Below are positions 3,257 through 20,862 of a DNA stretch of 28,845 bases, piece after piece. The stretch lies in UHGV virus genome UHGV-0374663. One strand, given 5' to 3'. How positions within the stretch are numbered: position 1 is the first letter of the stretch; the number at the start of each line of letters is the position of its first letter. A model generated the notes under the pieces. It saw nothing but the letters and a program-made list of their open reading frames with translations. It was not told the DNA's origin and made no database searches. The DNA is from a virus. A program made the translations under genes and the position numbers.

Positions 3257-3528
3257 GTATTCGTATTGAAATTGGCGAACGTTATGTCGTTACCAGTGAC
3301 AGCTTTCAGTTTATTCTCCACGAGAAAAAGAGAGCTGAAAGCGGTAAAAACGCCGGTCAGGAATGGCTGGCGGTGGTTGGTTATTACCCGAAATTAAGCC
3401 AGCTCGTTTCCGGCATGATGCATCACGATATTCTGACCGGAAGCGCAAAGTCTTTTGCTGATTTAAACGCGCAGGTTGAGCAACTCAGCAAGCGTTGTTC
3501 AGAGGCTTTTGGCTCATATGGCCGTTAA
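3253..3528 (+). CDS. Early hypothetical protein (P2 orf83 position)
   Basis: 91-aa ORF; its stop overlaps the start of gene A. Confidence 0.55.
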   Translation: MSIRIEIGERYVVTSDSFQFILHEKKRAESGKNAGQEWLAVVGYYPKLSQLVSGMMHHDILTGSAKSFADLNAQVEQLSKRCSEAFGSYGR

Positions 3529-5794
3529 AGCCTCCGGGCGTTTTGTCCCTCCGTCAGCATTTGCCGCAGGCACCGGTAAGGCGTTTACCGGTGCTTATGC
3601 ATGGAACGCGCCACGCGAGGCTGTCGGGCGCGAAAGACCCCTTACACGTGACGAGATGCGTCAGGTGCAAGGTGTTTTATCCACGATTAACCGCCTGCCT
3701 TACTTTTTGCGCTCGCTGTTTACTTCACGCTATGACTACATCCGGCGCAATAAAAGCCCGGTGCACGGGTTTTATTTCCTCACATCCACTTTTCAGCGTC
3801 GTTTATGGCCGCGCATTGAGCGTGTGAATCAGCGCCATGAAATGAACACCGACGCGTCGTTGCTGTTTCTGGCAGAGCGTGACCACTATGCGCGCCTGCC
3901 GGGAATGAATGACAAGGAGCTGAAAAAGTTTGCTGCCCGTATATCATCGCAGCTTTTCATGATGTATGAGGAACTCTGCGATGCCTGGGTGGATGCGCAT
4001 GGCGAAAAAGAATCGCTGTTTACGGATGAGGCGCAGGCTCACCTCTATGGTCATGTTGCTGGCGCTGCACGTGCTTTCAATATTTCCCCTCTCTACTGGA
4101 AAAAATACCGTAAAGGACAGATGACCACGAGGCAGGCATATTCTGCCATTGCCCGTCTGTTTAACGATGAGTGGTGGATTAGTCAGCTTCAAGGCCAGCG
4201 TATGCGCTGGCATGAGGCGTTACTGATTGCTGTCGGGGAGGTCAATAAAGACCGTTCTCCTTATGCCAGTAAACATGCCATTCGTGATGTGCGTGCACGC
4301 CGCCAGGCAAATCTGGAGTTTCTTAAATCGTGTGACCTTGAAAATAAGGAAACCGGCGAGCGCATTGACCTTATCAGTAAGGTGATGGGCAGTATTTCTA
4401 ATCCTGAAATTCGCCGGATGGAGCTGATGAACACCATTGCCGGTATTGAGCGTTACGCCGCTGCAGAGGGTGATGTGGGGATGTTTATCACGCTGACCGC
4501 GCCGTCAAAGTATCACCCGACACGTCAGGTCGGAAAAGGAGAAAGTAAAACCGTCCAGCTTAATCACGGCTGGAATGATGAGGCATTTAATCCAAAGGAT
4601 GCGCAGCGTTATCTCTGCCGTATCTGGAGCCTGGTGCGCACGGCATTCAAAGATAATGATTTACAGGTCTACGGTTTGCGAGTCGTCGAGCCACACCACG
4701 ACGGAACGCCGCACTGGCATATGATGCTTTTTTGTAATCCACGCCAGCGTAACCAGATTATCGAAATCATGCGTCGCTATGCGCTCAAAGAGGATGGCGA
4801 CGAAAGAGGAGCCGCGCGAAACCGTTTTCAGGCAAAACATCTTAACCGGGGCGGTGCTGCGGGATATATTGCTAAATACATCTCAAAAAATATCGACGGC
4901 TATGCACTGGATGGTCAGCTCGATAACGATACCGGCAGGCCGCTGAAAGACACTGCAGCGGCTGTTACCGCATGGGCGTCAACGTGGCGCATCCCACAAT
5001 TTAAAACGGTTGGTCTGCCGACAATGGGGGCTTACCGTGAACTACGCAAATTGCCTCGCGGCGTCAGCATTGCTGATGAGTTTGACGAGCGCGTCGAGGC
5101 TGCACGCGCCGCTGCAGACAGTGGTGATTTTGCGTTGTATATCAGCGCGCAGGGCGGGGCAAATGTCCCGCGCGATTGTCAGACTGTCAGGGTCGCCCGT
5201 AGCCCGTCGGATGACGTTAACGAGTACGAGGAAGAAGTCGAGAGAGTGGTCGGCATTTACGCGCCGCATCTCGGCGCGCGTCATATTCATATCACCAGAA
5301 CGACGGACTGGCGCATTGTGCCGAAAGTGCCGGTCGTTGAGCCTTTGACGTTAAAAAGCGGCATCGCCGCGCCTCGGAGTCCTGTCAATAACTGTGGAAA
5401 GCTCACCGGTGGTGATACTTCGTCACCGGCTCCCACGCCTTCTGAGCACGCCGCAGCAGTGCTTAATCTGGTTGATGACGGTGTTATCGAATGGAATGAC
5501 CCGGAGGTCGTGAGGGCGCTCAGAGGTGCATTAAAACACGAACTGAGAACACCAAATCGTCAGCAGAGAAACGGAAGCCCGTTAAAACCACATGAAATAG
5601 CGCCATCGGCCAGACTGACCCGGTCGGAACGAATGCAAATCACCCGTATCCGCGTTGACCTTGCTCAGAACGGTATCAGGCCTCAGCGATGGGAGCTTGA
5701 GGCGCTGGCGCGTGGCGCGACAGTAAATTATGACGGAATAAAATTCACGTATCCTGTCGCTGATGAGTGGCAGGGATTCACAATGGACCATTGA
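3518..5794 (+). CDS. A: Replication initiation endonuclease A (rolling-circle Rep, HUH family)
   Basis: ORF-track frame 3476..5794; start MAVKASGRF at 3518 matches the P2 gpA N-terminus as I recall it. HUH motif PHHDGTPHWHMMLF and active-site tyrosine region AKYISKNIDGY are present. Confidence 0.92.
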   Translation: MAVKASGRFVPPSAFAAGTGKAFTGAYAWNAPREAVGRERPLTRDEMRQVQGVLSTINRLPYFLRSLFTSRYDYIRRNKSPVHGFYFLTSTFQRRLWPRIERVNQRHEMNTDASLLFLAERDHYARLPGMNDKELKKFAARISSQLFMMYEELCDAWVDAHGEKESLFTDEAQAHLYGHVAGAARAFNISPLYWKKYRKGQMTTRQAYSAIARLFNDEWWISQLQGQRMRWHEALLIAVGEVNKDRSPYASKHAIRDVRARRQANLEFLKSCDLENKETGERIDLISKVMGSISNPEIRRMELMNTIAGIERYAAAEGDVGMFITLTAPSKYHPTRQVGKGESKTVQLNHGWNDEAFNPKDAQRYLCRIWSLVRTAFKDNDLQVYGLRVVEPHHDGTPHWHMMLFCNPRQRNQIIEIMRRYALKEDGDERGAARNRFQAKHLNRGGAAGYIAKYISKNIDGYALDGQLDNDTGRPLKDTAAAVTAWASTWRIPQFKTVGLPTMGAYRELRKLPRGVSIADEFDERVEAARAAADSGDFALYISAQGGANVPRDCQTVRVARSPSDDVNEYEEEVERVVGIYAPHLGARHIHITRTTDWRIVPKVPVVEPLTLKSGIAAPRSPVNNCGKLTGGDTSSPAPTPSEHAAAVLNLVDDGVIEWNDPEVVRALRGALKHELRTPNRQQRNGSPLKPHEIAPSARLTRSERMQITRIRVDLAQNGIRPQRWELEALARGATVNYDGIKFTYPVADEWQGFTMDH

Positions 5795-5903
5795 TGATTA
5801 ACATGAAAGAATTATGGAGCTTGCTTATATCGTGTTATGTCAGTTTACTGGATACAGGGCAAGTGAATGCCCCTTTCCATGAATTAGATTAAAGGCTTGC
5901 AAA

Positions 5904-7235
5904 ATGAACAATAACAGTCAGAAAGCTTTGAGTAAGAAGAAAACCAAGAAAACCAAAAAGAAGTCGCTTACCCCTGAACAAAAAGCATTGCAAGCAGAAC
6001 AAGCAGCAAAAAAAGCGCAAATTATAGAGAATAGGCGCTCTATTACAGCTCATGCTATTAACCTTTTTCAGCAATATACAGCACTCCGTAAAAAAGGATT
6101 AGATAGTTCCACTGCTACTTTGCAAGCTTATGCTGATTATGAAAAAGTACATGGACATAAATTCCTTAGTTCTATCTCTATGTGGACAAAAATCAAAACT
6201 GAAGCAGGGATTCGGATCTATGATCGTGAGAGACAAGATAGTCGTAAATCGCTTAATCTTGCTAAGATCCCAACCCGTTTAGAGGCTAAGCGTAGTGTAC
6301 TGACACAGAATCAAAAGAAAGTACATAACCAGAATGCAAATACATTACGCTTAATCGGTGGCAAAAAGCTACCTGTAACATCTATGGGGCTTATTGTATG
6401 TCCTGTCTGCGAGATACATATAAAAGATAGTGCTATAGAGTGGCATTTACGACACAACCACGTAGATCATATAGATAACCCGTTTACTAACCCTATAGTA
6501 GCTCCGGTTGATACTTTAGAAGAGGCTGTAGAAATACGAGACCTACTAATTGGTGATAAAACACTTCCGATTAAATCTAGTACTATTAATATGGGGAGTG
6601 ACAAGAAAGATAAACGTTATTTTAATAAGCAAGTTTATCAAACGGCATTGCTAACAATGACACAATCAGAAGCGTGGAAACTCGCGACTGATGAAGAATC
6701 TAGTATGACTTTTTTAAGCAATCAGTACATAAGTCCATTAACATCACCGGAACCCAATAATGAAATATCTCTTATCATGGATGGAACAGCTATAGCCATT
6801 AATGAAGGTCTAACTAATCCTTTAAAAGCCGCAAACGATACCTGTGCTACAGGACGAACAGTCGAGGTTACTCATAAAGTCCGTCATGCTGGAGATCAAG
6901 CTGATTTCAAACGCCGTGTTTGGGATAACTTCAATGGCAGATGTGCTATTACTGGCTATCCATTGCCAGAGGGGATATTGGAAGCCGCACATATTGAAGC
7001 AATAACAGAAGCGGCAAATAATAACACATCTAATGGCCTGTTACTTGAAGTAAGTTTGCACCGAATGTTTGATAAAGGATTGATGGGGATTAATCCAGAG
7101 GACTTAACGGTTCATTTCTCTATTAATTGTATCCACAAAACTATGTTTGAGGGTAAAACTCTACAACCACATCATGTAGAACTTGATGCTGACAAGTTGA
7201 TGACAAAATGGAAAAAGTTCAATGATAAGCGTTAA
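5904..7235 (+). CDS. Cargo protein: Lys-rich N-terminus + Zn-finger-like motif + C-terminal HNH nuclease domain
   Basis: 443-aa ORF in an AT-rich segment. HNH motif CAITG...LEAAHI...NGLLLEVSLHRMFDKG (aa 347-391, nt 6942..7073). C166-x2-C169-x11-H181-x2-H184-x-H186 motif (nt 6399..6470). Low-complexity KKKTKKTKKK at aa 11-20. Shine-Dalgarno-like AAAGG upstream of the ATG. Confidence 0.8.
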   Translation: MNNNSQKALSKKKTKKTKKKSLTPEQKALQAEQAAKKAQIIENRRSITAHAINLFQQYTALRKKGLDSSTATLQAYADYEKVHGHKFLSSISMWTKIKTEAGIRIYDRERQDSRKSLNLAKIPTRLEAKRSVLTQNQKKVHNQNANTLRLIGGKKLPVTSMGLIVCPVCEIHIKDSAIEWHLRHNHVDHIDNPFTNPIVAPVDTLEEAVEIRDLLIGDKTLPIKSSTINMGSDKKDKRYFNKQVYQTALLTMTQSEAWKLATDEESSMTFLSNQYISPLTSPEPNNEISLIMDGTAIAINEGLTNPLKAANDTCATGRTVEVTHKVRHAGDQADFKRRVWDNFNGRCAITGYPLPEGILEAAHIEAITEAANNNTSNGLLLEVSLHRMFDKGLMGINPEDLTVHFSINCIHKTMFEGKTLQPHHVELDADKLMTKWKKFNDKR

Positions 7236-7326
7236 CATGACTTCTTCTGGCGCAGCGAGGCATTAGATTTAATTATGTATTATGATTTAATTTGGGGCGT
7301 GATTTGTTATATGGGGAATAGATTAT

Positions 7327-7746
7327 ATGGTGACGCTTGATACTGTTTATTGGAAATTTGGTTATGCTTCGGAAGCAGCTCAATTACTGGAGACTGAGTT
7401 GATAAATATTATCACTGAGTATGATATGAGTCAGGGGAAAGATATACAGTCGCTGAAAAAACAGTTTTTAGAAATGGATAAATACACGCTGGGTAGATTG
7501 AATTACGCACTGAAGTCTAGGATGGTGGAGGATGCTGATACACTGGAGCGTGTGTCTGATGCTCTTAAAGCCAGAAACTACTTAGCACATGACTTTTATC
7601 GCAAACATGCTGAAGGTAAATTCACTCCGGAAGGAAGGCAGAGAATGCTTGCCGACTTAAATAGTGTACATCACATAATTTTTGAGGCTTACCGCAAGGT
7701 TCTGCAACTAAGCGACATTGAAATTCCTCCTTTAGAGCATGATTAA
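7327..7746 (+). CDS. Cargo protein 2: small hypothetical protein, likely co-transcribed with the HNH protein
   Basis: 139-aa ORF 91 bp downstream of the HNH gene on the same strand, same AT-rich composition, GGGGAA Shine-Dalgarno 8 nt upstream; no motif recognised. Confidence 0.65.
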   Translation: MVTLDTVYWKFGYASEAAQLLETELINIITEYDMSQGKDIQSLKKQFLEMDKYTLGRLNYALKSRMVEDADTLERVSDALKARNYLAHDFYRKHAEGKFTPEGRQRMLADLNSVHHIIFEAYRKVLQLSDIEIPPLEHD

Positions 7747-7874
7747 ATCTTGCATGCATTAGATGCATTGGTTTGCATGCATCATTCGTTATTTTCATTT
7801 TCGAGTGCCGTCAGTGTCGGCATGGTTTTGACGGATTCATACATGTGCATTAAAACCTCCCCATGAAGCGGGCG

Positions 7875-7893
7875 GGCGAGGCGGGGAAAGCAC
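7875..7893. other. cos site (P2-type 19-nt cohesive end GGCGAGGCGGGGAAAGCAC)
   Basis: Exact match to the P2 cohesive-end sequence as I remember it, located between the cargo region and the 3' end of portal gene Q, where the virion right and left ends are joined in a prophage. Confidence 0.7.
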
Positions 7894-8035
7894 TGCGCGC
7901 TGGCGGTGGTGCTGATTTTATTTTTTCAGCGTCTGAGCGCGTCGTGATGGCGTTTAGATTGTGCGCCGGGGCGTTGGTTTGTCTGCGGGCTGTTTTGCGC
8001 GGTGGTGAGCGTGTGAGGGCGTGATGACGGGTTGT

Positions 8036-8058
8036 AAAAAAGCCGCCCGCAGGCGGCG
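8036..8058 (-). terminator. Rho-independent terminator downstream of Q
   Basis: On the minus strand: GCCGCC-(4-nt loop)-GGCGGC followed by TTTTTT, beginning 5 nt after the Q stop codon. Confidence 0.6.
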
Positions 8059-8062
8059 ATGT

Positions 8063-9097
8063 TCAGCCGTTGTCAGTGTCCAGTGAGTAGTTTTTAAAGC
8101 GGATGACCTCCTGACCGAGCCAGCCGTTTATCTCGCGGATCCTGTCCTGTAACGGGATAAGCTCATTGCGGACAAAGACCTTTGCCACTTTCTCAATATC
8201 TCCCAGTGACCCGACGTTCTCCGGCTTGCCGCCCATCAACTGAAAGGGGATGCGGTGTGCGTCCAGCAGGTCTGCGGCGCTGGCTTTTTTGATATTAAAA
8301 AAATCGTCCTTCGTCGCCACTTCACTGAGCGGGATAATTTTAATGCCGTCGGCTTTCCCTTGCGGGGCATAGAGAAACAGATTTTTAAAGTTGTTGCGGC
8401 CTTTCGACTTCACCATGTTTTCGCGGAGCATTTCGATATCGTTGCGATCCTGCACGGCATCGGTGACGTACATGATGTATCCGGCATGTGCGCCGTTTTC
8501 GTAATACTTGCGGCGGAACAGCGTGGCCGACTCATTCAGCCAGGCAGAGTTAAGGGCGCTGAGATATTCCGGCAGGCCGTACAGCTCCTGATTAATATCC
8601 GGCTCCAGCAGGTGAAACACGGAGCCGGGCGCGAAAGGTGTCGGCTCATGGAAGGACGGCACCCACCAGTAAACATCCTCTTCCACGCCACGGCGGGTAT
8701 ATTTTGCCGGTGAGGTTTCCAGTCTGATGACCTTACCGGTGGTGCTGTAACGCTTTTCCAGAAACGCATTACCGAACACCAGAAAATCCAGCACAAAGCG
8801 GCTGAAATCCTGCTGGGAAAGCCACGGATGCGGGATAAATGTCGAGGCCAGAATATTACGTTTGACGTAAATCGGTGAGCTGTGATGCACGGCAGCACGC
8901 AGGCTTTTTGCCAGACCGGTAAAGCTGACCGGTGGCTCATACCATCTGCCGTTACTGATGCACTCGACGTAATCCAGAATGTCACGGCGGTCGAGTACCG
9001 GCACCGGCTCACCAAAGGTGAATGCCTCCATTTTCGGGGCGCTGGCGGTCATTTTTTTTGCCGCAGGTTGCGGTGTTTTCCCTTTTTTCTTGCTCAT
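8063..9097 (-). CDS. Q: Portal protein
   Basis: 344-aa ORF, same length as P2 gpQ; adjacent to cos and overlapping the P stop. Confidence 0.95.
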   Translation of the reverse strand: MSKKKGKTPQPAAKKMTASAPKMEAFTFGEPVPVLDRRDILDYVECISNGRWYEPPVSFTGLAKSLRAAVHHSSPIYVKRNILASTFIPHPWLSQQDFSRFVLDFLVFGNAFLEKRYSTTGKVIRLETSPAKYTRRGVEEDVYWWVPSFHEPTPFAPGSVFHLLEPDINQELYGLPEYLSALNSAWLNESATLFRRKYYENGAHAGYIMYVTDAVQDRNDIEMLRENMVKSKGRNNFKNLFLYAPQGKADGIKIIPLSEVATKDDFFNIKKASAADLLDAHRIPFQLMGGKPENVGSLGDIEKVAKVFVRNELIPLQDRIREINGWLGQEVIRFKNYSLDTDNG

Positions 9098-19202: not shown

Positions 19203-19806
19203 TTCGCGACTGCTGCCAACCGGCTCATCACCGCTTGAAGTTGCCGCCGCAAAAGCCTGTGCGGAAATTGAAAAAACACCGGTCAGTATTCGTGAGCTGT
19301 GGAACCCGGACACCTGCCCGGCAAATCTGCTGCCGTGGCTGGCGTGGTCATTTTCGGTTGACCGCTGGGATGATAAGTGGCCGGAAGCGACAAAACGCGC
19401 TGTTATCCGCGATGCGTATTTCATTCACTGCCATAAGGGCACTATTGGTGCGATTCGCCGTGTGGTGGAGCCGCTCGGCTATCTGATTGAGGTGAGGGAG
19501 TGGTGGCAGCTCAACGAGGAGCCGGGGACGTTCCGCATCGTTGTTGGCGTGCTTGAGCAGGGTATTACCGAGGAAATGTATCAGGAGCTGGAGCGCCTCG
19601 TTGCTGATGCAAAACCGGCAAGCCGCCATCTGACGGGACTGGCTATCAGTTTAAGTACAACCGGCAACATTTTTGCCGGTGCGGGATGCTATCACGGTGA
19701 CGCCCTGACGGTTTATCCCTACACACCGGAGGCCATTATTGTCGGAGGGGATTATTTCCCGGCCTCGGCCATTCATTTAATTGATAACCTGAGAGTAAAC
19801 GCATGA
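19195..19806 (+). CDS. I: Baseplate protein I
   Basis: 203-aa ORF with GGAGG upstream, between J and H. The start is less certain; my recollection of P2 gpI is shorter. Confidence 0.8.
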   Translation: MSDSRLLPTGSSPLEVAAAKACAEIEKTPVSIRELWNPDTCPANLLPWLAWSFSVDRWDDKWPEATKRAVIRDAYFIHCHKGTIGAIRRVVEPLGYLIEVREWWQLNEEPGTFRIVVGVLEQGITEEMYQELERLVADAKPASRHLTGLAISLSTTGNIFAGAGCYHGDALTVYPYTPEAIIVGGDYFPASAIHLIDNLRVNA

Positions 19807-20486
19807 CAGTGAAATACTACGCCATTCTGACTAATCAGGGCGCAGCACGGCTGGCTAACGCGACGATGCTCGGCAGTAAGCTGAATCTGACGCAAATGGC
19901 CGTTGGTGATGCGAATGGTGTCTTACCGACACCAGACCCGGCACAGACAAAACTGATTAACCAGAAACGCATCGCGCCGCTGAATCTTCTGAGTGTTGAC
20001 CCGAACAATCAGAGCCAGATTATTGCGGAGCAAATCATCCCTGAAAACGAGGGCGGATTCTGGATCCGTGAGATTGGACTTTATGATGATGAAGGCGTAC
20101 TCATTGCGGTGGCGAACTGCCCGGAAACGTACAAACCGCAGTTGCAGGAAGGCAGTGGTCGTACCCAGACTATCCGCATGATTCTGGTTGTCACGAACAC
20201 CGAAGCCATCACGCTGAAAATCGACCCGGCTGTGGTACTGGCAACACGTAAATATGTGGATGACAAAATTTCTGAGCACGAACAGTCACGACGCCACCCG
20301 GACGCCTCGCTGACCGCAAAAGGTTTTACTCAGTTAAGCAGTGCAACTAACAGTACATCTGAAACACTGGCCGCAACACCGAAAGCGGTAAAGGCTGCAT
20401 ATGACCTGGCTAACGGGAAATATACCGCTCAGGATGCGACTACGGCACGAAAAGGCCTTGTTAAACTCAGTAGCGCCACAAAGTGA
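19803..20486 (+). CDS. H: Tail fibre protein H, N-terminal part only (227 codons, premature stop inside the collar-repeat region)
   Basis: Ends with P2-H-type repeats (SSATNSTSETLAATPKAVKAAYDLANGKYTAQDATTARKGLVKLSSAT) then a stop; P2 H is about 669 aa. Confidence 0.75.
   Translation: MTVKYYAILTNQGAARLANATMLGSKLNLTQMAVGDANGVLPTPDPAQTKLINQKRIAPLNLLSVDPNNQSQIIAEQIIPENEGGFWIREIGLYDDEGVLIAVANCPETYKPQLQEGSGRTQTIRMILVVTNTEAITLKIDPAVVLATRKYVDDKISEHEQSRRHPDASLTAKGFTQLSSATNSTSETLAATPKAVKAAYDLANGKYTAQDATTARKGLVKLSSATK
20397..20482. repeat. Left arm of a perfect 86-bp inverted repeat within the H collar-repeat coding sequence
   Basis: 20397..20482 is the exact reverse complement of 20708..20793, checked base by base. 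Confidence 0.85.
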
Positions 20487-20862
20487 GTATGGCGTTTGCC
20501 GGTTGTCTTCCATTAGCCAGGTCGTATGCAGCCTTTACCGCTTTTGGCGTTGCAGCCAGTGTTTCAGATGTGCTGTTGGTTGCACTACTGAGCTGAACAA
20601 GCCCTTTTTGCGTCGTGGTGGCGTTCTGGGCGGTATATTTCCCGTTAGCCAGGTCATACGCCGCCTTGACCGCTTTTGGCGTTGCAGCCAGTGTTTCAGA
20701 CGTGCTGTTTGTGGCGCTACTGAGTTTAACAAGGCCTTTTCGTGCCGTAGTCGCATCCTGAGCGGTATATTTCCCGTTAGCCAGGTCATATGCGGCCGTA
20801 GATCGTGCCGCGTTAACTGCACTGACAAGTGTTGGTCGTGCAATTCTTAGTAAGCCCAGCAC
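20467..20862 (-). pseudogene. Inverted fragment encoding H-type collar repeats on the opposite strand
   Basis: Minus-strand ORF (GTG start) translating to two or three copies of ...NSTSETLAATPKAVKAAYDLANGKYTAQ...; it is the mirror of the end of the H N-terminal ORF and is unlikely to be an independent gene. Confidence 0.4.
20708..20793. repeat. Right arm of the perfect 86-bp inverted repeat
   Basis: Reverse complement of 20397..20482. Confidence 0.85.

Follow-up and report, generated by a model that had tools for sequence, protein, structure and literature searches.

Does the cargo that lies between gene A and cos in the virus genome UHGV-0374663 act as one two-gene defence system, or do two independent genes share the same slot? 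The DNA analysed here, hereafter the window, is one strand of 28,845 nucleotides (nt), and the interval in question, positions 5795-7874, carries two co-oriented open reading frames (ORFs), ORF1 and ORF2, within a P2-like backbone. A preliminary description had proposed the pair as a candidate undescribed anti-phage module; its gene coordinates, and the positions it gave for the end of gene A (5794) and the start of cos (7875), were reproduced here. Taking the evidence together, we consider that the interval probably consists of two autonomous single-gene cassettes stacked in the gpA-cos hotspot, one for a solitary HNH nuclease and one for a HEPN-like RNase.

Separate breakpoints of the two cassettes

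Homology to other elements breaks between the two genes, and each of them lies in a block of its own (Table 1). The HNH cassette recurs beside the lysis genes of a different phage (L098), in a copy without ORF2, while the ORF2 block comprises the gene together with its own upstream and downstream DNA and is shared with Salmonella phage PSP3 and with ST131-type prophages, in which the cargo upstream of the block is unrelated. Both genes are under purifying selection, with a ratio of nonsynonymous to synonymous substitution rates (dN/dS) of 0.23 for ORF1 against its E. coli orthologue and of 0.17-0.31 for ORF2, and both look functional.

The same independence is seen in how often the genes meet. 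Profile-guided searches gathered 95 loci with an ORF2 relative; an ORF1-type HNH gene is present at five of these, all near-identical and belonging to one prophage lineage. Conversely, among viral loci with an ORF1 relative, ORF2 stands alongside in 4 of 13, again all from one prophage lineage. In complete E. coli genomes the intact pair was found 12 times (~95% identity), and 18 other genomes match 7252-7874 only, that is ORF2 and its flanks. Thus the earlier proposal that the two genes form one module did not hold in this survey of loci, where each gene moves without the other.

An ORF2 relative is cos-proximal in 11 of the 12 P2-like loci, with varying cargo upstream of it: the ORF1-type HNH gene at five loci, genes matching the PADLOC candidate systems PDC-M18 and PDC-S31 at three (L002, L084 and L085), a DUF3850/ASCH (orf91-like) gene with an ORF of 72 amino acids (aa) at L091, two small ORFs at L092, a DinI/Tum-like gene at L090 and nothing at L089. 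In the ST131-type prophages three unrelated proteins are encoded upstream of the ORF2 homologue and account for the matches to PDC-M18 (A and B) and PDC-S31 (DUF2971), which in E. coli SaT040 lie at L002 3174-5673. In PSP3 the ORF2 homologue, gp38, is preceded by tumA, tumB/DinI and gp37. The more distant P2-like element L090 (7378-10409) also carries a gene downstream of ORF2, for a 592-aa GmrSD_N + Schlafen/AlbA_2 (NsnA-like) protein that separates ORF2 from the portal gene; therefore, ORF2 is sometimes not the last gene before cos.

Relatives of ORF1 occur without ORF2 at L098, L101-L108 and L111-L120. Besides the lysis cassette of L098, their settings include a Citrobacter island, where the neighbour is a Gabija-like pair, an integrase islet of Cronobacter, the transfer region of a Salmonella integrative and conjugative element (ICE) and, at L101, a place directly after the P4-type primase of a P4-like satellite contig. 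The L101 protein (within 4720-8888) is an ORF1-family HNH_2 protein of 488 aa, and its occurrence in a satellite means that this nuclease family is cargo of helper phages and satellites alike. A 139-aa gene near the Cronobacter relative (L115) was considered as an ORF2 homologue and rejected, since it encodes an unrelated secreted-type protein.

The conserved element upstream of ORF2, whose two hexamers are 18 nt apart in more distant loci, could possibly be a promoter of its own, as judged from the alignment. A scan with the sigma-70 consensus gave no + strand site upstream of ORF2, and promoter-like sites were no commoner than in shuffled sequence. The cassette is also flanked by a 9-nt direct repeat, GCATTAGAT, at 7260-7268 and 7756-7764, and by a 13-nt imperfect inverted repeat at 7265-7277 and 7738-7750; these repeats are probably a coincidence, because in 2.4 kb chance alone should produce about 11 pairs of matching 9-mers. 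The ORF2 allele of the window is itself a mosaic, its N-terminal two-thirds resembling the E. coli allele that accompanies the HNH gene (P0094) and its C-terminal third the ST131-prophage allele (P0092), which suggests recombination inside the gene.

Table 1. Features of the interval and of its flanks, with positions in the window
Feature	Position	Strand	Evidence or remark
HNH cassette, moves by itself	5879..7243	+	GC 0.377; 83% nt identity to L098 over 5879-5929 and 5937-7243
ORF1, 443-aa zinc-finger HNH_2 nuclease (predicted)	5904..7235	+	phrog_20585, E=8.5e-178, function unknown
ORF1 C2H2 zinc finger (aa ~160-186; C166, C169, H181, H186)	6381..6461	+	four residues nearly invariant in alignment
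ORF1 HNH_2 catalytic core (aa 347-397), H363 codon 6990-6992	6942..7094	+	PF13391
ORF2 cassette, gene with its own upstream and downstream DNA	7250..7784	+	homology block with PSP3 (7250-7784, 79%) and ST131-type prophages (from 7252, 92%)
ORF2 upstream element, conserved	7250..7326	+	invariant TTAGA and CATTAT/TATTAT (alignment of 8 P2-like loci)
ORF2, 139-aa HEPN-like helical protein (PSP3 gp38 family)	7327..7746	+	phrog_12893, E=1.4e-81, function unknown
Rx4H motif codons, R83-N84-Y85-L86-A87-H88	7573..7590	+	read from sequence
Terminator-like hairpin followed by a T-rich tail	7762..7783	+	3' of ORF2, within the ORF2 cassette
Gene A (P2 replication endonuclease), left backbone flank	3476..5794	+	772-aa ORF; E. 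coli orthologue annotated replication endonuclease
cos 19-nt cohesive-end sequence GGCGAGGCGGGGAAAGCAC, right backbone flank	7875..7893	.	read in sequence
Portal gene Q, backbone	8063..9097	-	ORF; orthologous loci annotated portal protein

ORF1, a predicted HNH_2 nuclease with a zinc finger

The view that the larger gene encodes an HNH-type nuclease is borne out by its domain content. HNH_2 (PF13391) matches the C-terminal part of ORF1 with 41.6 bits, for a cutoff of 21. Across 27 aligned ORF1-family sequences H363, N377 and H386 never vary, and H363 stands within an invariant LEAAHIE. In the AlphaFold (AF2) model, residues 359-390 form a strand-strand-helix with a predicted local distance difference test score (pLDDT) of 70-84. 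A search with the family profile picked out the VcaM4I HNH domain (6yex) at E=7.1e-6, and a Foldseek search with the confident HNH part returned TagI (6ghs) first, with probability 1.0, then VcaM4I and then the HNH domains of Cas9 and Cap5.

Upstream of the nuclease the family profile, at residues ~155-186, matches classical C2H2 fingers of the PDB (ZBTB17, E=8e-5; Aart, 5e-4; consensus ZF, 1e-3), and the same region gives weak Pfam matches to zf-Di19 and OrsD. The model of the whole protein is poor (pLDDT 53): predicted disorder links its folded islands, namely a helix near the N-terminus, the finger, the HNH domain and a helical stretch spanning aa 242-276, and the N-terminus is a lysine-rich tail. 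Because of this poor model, the full-length fold search was uninformative beyond the HNH domain.

Searches of Pfam, NCBIfam and PADLOC-DB with ORF1 found no EVE/PUA, SRA, sulphur-binding (SBD) or NEco reader domain. The matches in PADLOC-DB v2.0.0 are at domain level only, to HNH models of restriction endonuclease (REase) type (41.5 and 27.8 bits, aa 311-411), and the NCBIfam model PT-DNA_restrict scores 31.7 bits against a cutoff of 180, over the HNH part only. For both ORF1 and a longer relative (P0003), HNH_2 was the only domain detected by Pfam, with no NUMOD or AP2 module. ORF1 relatives of 500-510 aa from Citrobacter, Pectobacterium and Enterobacter have a segment of ~60 aa that is missing in the window protein and in its E. 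coli orthologue, both of 443 aa, and that would fall near 6510-6520 of the window (around aa 205); the difference may be either a domain loss in the 443-aa forms or an insertion in the others. The segment looks AP2-like, but Pfam does not recognise it, and we make no such claim.

The HNH cassette encodes a solitary nuclease, with neither a methyltransferase nor an immunity partner. Since it is solitary in this sense, we infer that ORF1 must be specific for something foreign, and its nearest relatives suggest a restriction-like, possibly modification-dependent enzyme; lacking a reader domain, however, it cannot be placed firmly within Type IV. Long flexible linkers join the parts of the protein, which are a lysine-rich N-terminus, a classical C2H2 finger, a small helical domain that is conserved and, at the C-terminus, the HNH_2 ββα-metal nuclease; such a protein would cut DNA only when its DNA-binding modules recognise a foreign feature, be it a modification, a sequence or a structure. 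Such an enzyme could serve as a restriction-like effector against competing phages.

ORF2 and the HEPN superfamily

The smaller protein had been described as having no recognisable motif; however, the alignment of its family revealed a near-invariant RNxLxH, that is an Rx4H motif. All of 24 aligned sequences share R83, N84, L86 and H88, and in a set of 72 each of the four is at least 90% conserved; the family also has a conserved N-terminal helix, KFGxxxEAAQLLExEL. The AF2 model is of high quality (pLDDT 91.5) and shows a bundle of helices 4-35, 40-50, 55-65, 70-88 and 101-127; when helix 55-65 is counted as an insert, RNxLxH falls at the C-terminal end of helix 70-88, the third. In HEPN domains the residue after R in Rx4-6H is usually N, D or H, and the four-helix core has the motif ending helix 3, with inserts frequent between helices 2 and 3 (PMC3710099). 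Both the motif and the predicted helix layout of ORF2 fit this description. The first helix contains an invariant E22 as well as the conserved E16 and E24, all three outside an Ex3[KR] context.

Support for the same assignment comes from the wider family, which an exhaustive search extended to 1,907 cluster representatives at E≤1e-3 (~1,900 clusters at 50% identity). In the 279-aa protein P0159 an ORF2-type domain is fused to a HepT-like domain (PF01934) that scores above the gathering threshold and apparently lacks an Rx4H of its own, and P0248 (331 aa) has two ORF2 domains in tandem, each with RNxLAHH; these fused and tandem forms imply a dimeric function. Genes directly next to family members include some for HEPN proteins of the Ymh type (PF09509, E about 1e-42), one for a paralogue and some with weak matches to RiboL-PSP-type HEPN, and the recurring sub-threshold Pfam matches of 72 members are concentrated in HEPN_Apea, DUF4145, HEPN_RiboL-PSP, HEPN_Cthe2314, HEPN_LA2681 and HEPN_MAE_28990. 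In a Longimicrobiales genome (L026 4519-8423), an ORF2-family gene lies directly downstream of genes for McrB (AAA_5) and McrC, which may be a three-gene restriction/HEPN arrangement.

Several results weigh against a HEPN assignment. The window protein has no Pfam match at E≤10, the best HEPN matches among the 72 members reach E=0.0025-0.04 and are all below the gathering scores, the family profile gave noise only against PDB sequences, and Foldseek returned nothing significant with the ORF2 model. The family is without a Pfam model and goes unannotated even in a classic phage, PSP3. Across ~77 distant loci, in which same-strand neighbours were grouped by sensitive clustering and antitoxin-like genes were sought, no tightly coupled partner proved to be conserved, and many of the distant homologues lie in non-defence neighbourhoods. 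Overall, we judge it fairly likely that ORF2 belongs to the HEPN superfamily, and on the strength of its motif, its model and the fusions and neighbours of its family the protein is probably a HEPN-like RNase. It would then be a divergent HEPN domain whose dimer creates the Rx4H ribonuclease site; needing no partner, this RNase would most likely serve in abortive infection or exclusion.

The hotspot, alternative explanations and known systems

The interval between gpA and gpQ/cos is a cargo hotspot of P2-like prophages (Rousset et al. 2022, PMC9122126), as the preliminary description had stated. The flanks in the window are ~96% identical to those of many P2-type phages that carry other cargo between A and Q, namely Fic/VbhT, cytolethal distending toxin (cdt), retron Ec48, DUF4238, DUF3850/orf91 or a 3'-5' exoribonuclease. 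Backbone homology to other P2-like phages stops at 5783-5807 on the gene A side and restarts at 7837-7846 on the cos side, and in a pairwise alignment the linear record of Yersinia phage L-413C ends exactly at window position 7893. The window is 100% identical to the IMG/VR contig UViG_2703718839_000009; when the interval was compared with 50,697 phage records, megablast gave no match, and PSP3 gp38 surfaced only by tblastn.

The interval is compositionally foreign. Its guanine and cytosine (GC) content is 0.386 against 0.541 for the remainder of the window and lies below that of each of 453 other windows of 2080 base pairs (bp), the lowest of which has 0.441; GC at third codon positions (GC3) is 0.29 in ORF1, 0.39 in ORF2 and 0.54 in gene A, and no second strongly AT-rich island was found in the window. 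The greater AT-richness noted beforehand is thus confirmed; the recent acquisition that was proposed for both genes is doubtful for ORF2, because this is a recurrent right-end gene of P2/186-like phages, as in PSP3.

Elsewhere in the window, the tail-fibre region (19803-20862) appears rearranged. The H-like ORF is just 227 aa long and lies on the + strand, and the - strand ORF that follows it, 20467-20862, encodes the same SSATNSTSETLAATPKAVKAAYDLANGKYTAQ repeats. The region holds inverted repeats of 90 nt (20393-20482/20708-20797, 99% complementary) and tandem repeats of 132 nt at 20510-20773; DNA inversion or recombination may have produced the arrangement, or it may be an artefact of the assembly.

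Three other explanations of the cargo have to be set against two autonomous cassettes. That the genes form one obligate defence or abortive-infection system, with the HNH protein as effector and the small protein as sensor, regulator or immunity factor, would agree with their adjacency, shared orientation, spacing of 91 bp and low GC, with the intact pair in E. coli genomes and with an entry 'HNH_2 + hypothetical' in a published list of hotspot cargo (Table S5A of Rousset et al.); but the rarity of the pair outside one prophage lineage, the solitary occurrences of either gene, the separate recombination breakpoints and the upstream element that belongs to ORF2 make this very improbable. ORF1 might instead be a selfish, free-standing homing-type endonuclease that targets a site in related phages lacking the gene and spreads by repair-mediated copying, with no part in host defence. 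Free-standing phage homing endonucleases have a modular layout similar to that of ORF1, whose finger and small helical domain are tethered like beads on a string, by long linkers, to a terminal nuclease, and the ORF1 gene is intergenic, AT-rich and phage-borne. However, its nuclease is HNH_2 and not of the HNH_3/zf-His_Me_endon homing group, Pfam recognises no NUMOD or AP2, and its relatives occupy five unrelated contexts (P2 slot, lysis region, after a P4-type primase, ICE and Gabija-like island) with no single cognate target, so that we regard a homing origin as improbable, if a little less so than an obligate pair.

The remaining alternative concerns ORF2, which might be a non-RNase accessory protein that benefits the phage (regulatory, anti-defence or lysogeny-related) and is kept beside cos, its RNxLxH serving binding or structure. 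Its fixed position near cos irrespective of the upstream cargo would suit such a role, as would the lack of a significant HEPN profile or Foldseek match and of an antitoxin-like partner, and the many distant homologues in non-defence neighbourhoods; against it stand the invariant Rx4H, with N after R and at the canonical structural position, the HepT-like fusion, the tandem form, the Ymh HEPN and McrBC neighbours, and weak Pfam matches enriched for HEPN families. We think this role for ORF2 unlikely, though it deserves some room. The reading in which two autonomous cassettes are stacked in the hotspot can also be carried further: both genes would be new single-gene immune effectors, ORF1 telling foreign DNA from self by its eukaryote-type C2H2 finger and tethered modules, in place of a methylation partner or a known reader of modified bases, and ORF2 founding an unmodelled, very widespread and partner-free family of HEPN-like RNases near cos in P2/186-like phages. 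Taken to this length it is a tentative proposal, and we are more inclined to doubt it than to adopt it.

If either gene protects alone, the repertoire of the P2 hotspot would gain one more compact single-gene effector. The design of ORF1, a C2H2 finger tethered to HNH_2 with neither methyltransferase nor reader, poses the question of how the host genome escapes cutting, and an assignment of the ORF2 family to HEPN would annotate thousands of hypothetical proteins. Neighbours in a hotspot should not be presumed to be one system, and cloning designs should treat the cassettes separately. Specialists would expect uncharacterised nuclease cargo at the gpA-cos locus; a simple test by cloning would be worthwhile both for the C2H2-HNH layout and for the HEPN-like family, which is large and unannotated.

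For neither ORF1 nor ORF2 was a full-length match found in PADLOC-DB v2, Pfam or NCBIfam, and ORF2 has no PADLOC match at E≤1, in agreement with the earlier statement that no named system could be assigned. PADLOC-DB v2 presumably also represents the systems of Vassallo et al. 2022. The arrangement itself has been seen before, as 'HNH_2 + hypothetical' is listed at the gpA-gpQ locus in Table S5A of Rousset et al. 2022, where it is not among the tested systems (PMC9122126); these 'HNH_2' entries correspond to ORF1 by their label and may be of the same family. The same table lists the ST131 arrangement with WP_001576649, an ORF2 homologue, which is likewise not among the tested systems (PMC9122126). 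Among their additional systems Rousset et al. tested a 'Putative HEPN' (pFR103), which E. coli S88 carries at its P2 locus; it was examined as an ORF2 homologue and rejected, its protein (MNDIFVLTREEL...) being unrelated. The signature peptide of ORF2 was not found in the accessible part of the supplementary files of Rousset et al., and for neither protein does the accession or the signature peptide occur in the supplements of the DefensePredictor paper (PMC13092281); HNH is not mentioned in the main text of Vassallo et al. 2022, or in that of a 2026 Nucleic Acids Research survey of P2/P4. Neither gene has a named system or a tested function, while the type of locus, the idea of nuclease cargo and the arrangement are not new.

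Among characterised enzymes, ORF1 resembles the Type IV HNH enzymes VcaM4I (EVE-HNH, PDB 6YEX), TagI (6GHS), EcoKMcrA and the ScoMcrA type in being a single polypeptide that works without a methyltransferase partner and ends in an HNH domain of their subfamily. Unlike them it lacks an EVE/PUA, SRA or sulphur-binding reader domain, in place of which its N-terminal 330 residues hold the C2H2 finger, the small helical domain and long disordered linkers. In the classification of His-Me finger nucleases, PF13391 is grouped with McrA/Cas9-type and restriction enzymes, and homing endonucleases fall in a separate group, HNH_3/zf-His_Me_endon, which has the NUMOD and AP2 modules (PMC5714182). With the free-standing homing endonucleases (I-HmuI / HNH_3-AP2-NUMOD, I-TevI-like), ORF1 shares an intergenic position in phage and a nuclease flexibly tethered to small modules that bind DNA, one of them a zinc finger; it differs from them in its HNH subgroup, in the NUMOD and AP2 modules, which were not detected in it, and in having no conserved insertion site.

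ORF2 is like the minimal HEPN RNases (HepT/DUF86, Ymh/PF09509, RiboL-PSP, Apea and AbiV/AbiJ-type) in its occurrence on mobile elements and next to restriction-modification or McrBC genes, and unlike them in its family-specific KFGxxxEAAQLLExEL helix, in apparently lacking Ex3[KR] and in having no minimal nucleotidyltransferase (MNT) or other antitoxin as neighbour. The adjacent MNT gene of HEPN-MNT (HepT-MntA) pairs is absent here, the neighbours of ORF2 being the HNH gene upstream and cos downstream. PSP3 gp38 (orf38; NP_958097), for which the PSP3 record gives no function, is a true homologue of 139 aa, 74% identical to ORF2 and also the last gene before cos, with no substantial difference except that tumA, tumB and gp37 stand upstream instead of the HNH gene. 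Finally, the validated gpA-gpQ cargo, which comprises P2 tin and old as well as DUF4238, 3HP, DprA-PRTase and TIR+TM (Rousset et al. 2022), has the same locus, orientation logic and compact size as the two genes described here but, as judged from PADLOC, which gave no full-length match for either protein, no sequence relationship to them; tin and old have been replaced in this genome, not diverged.

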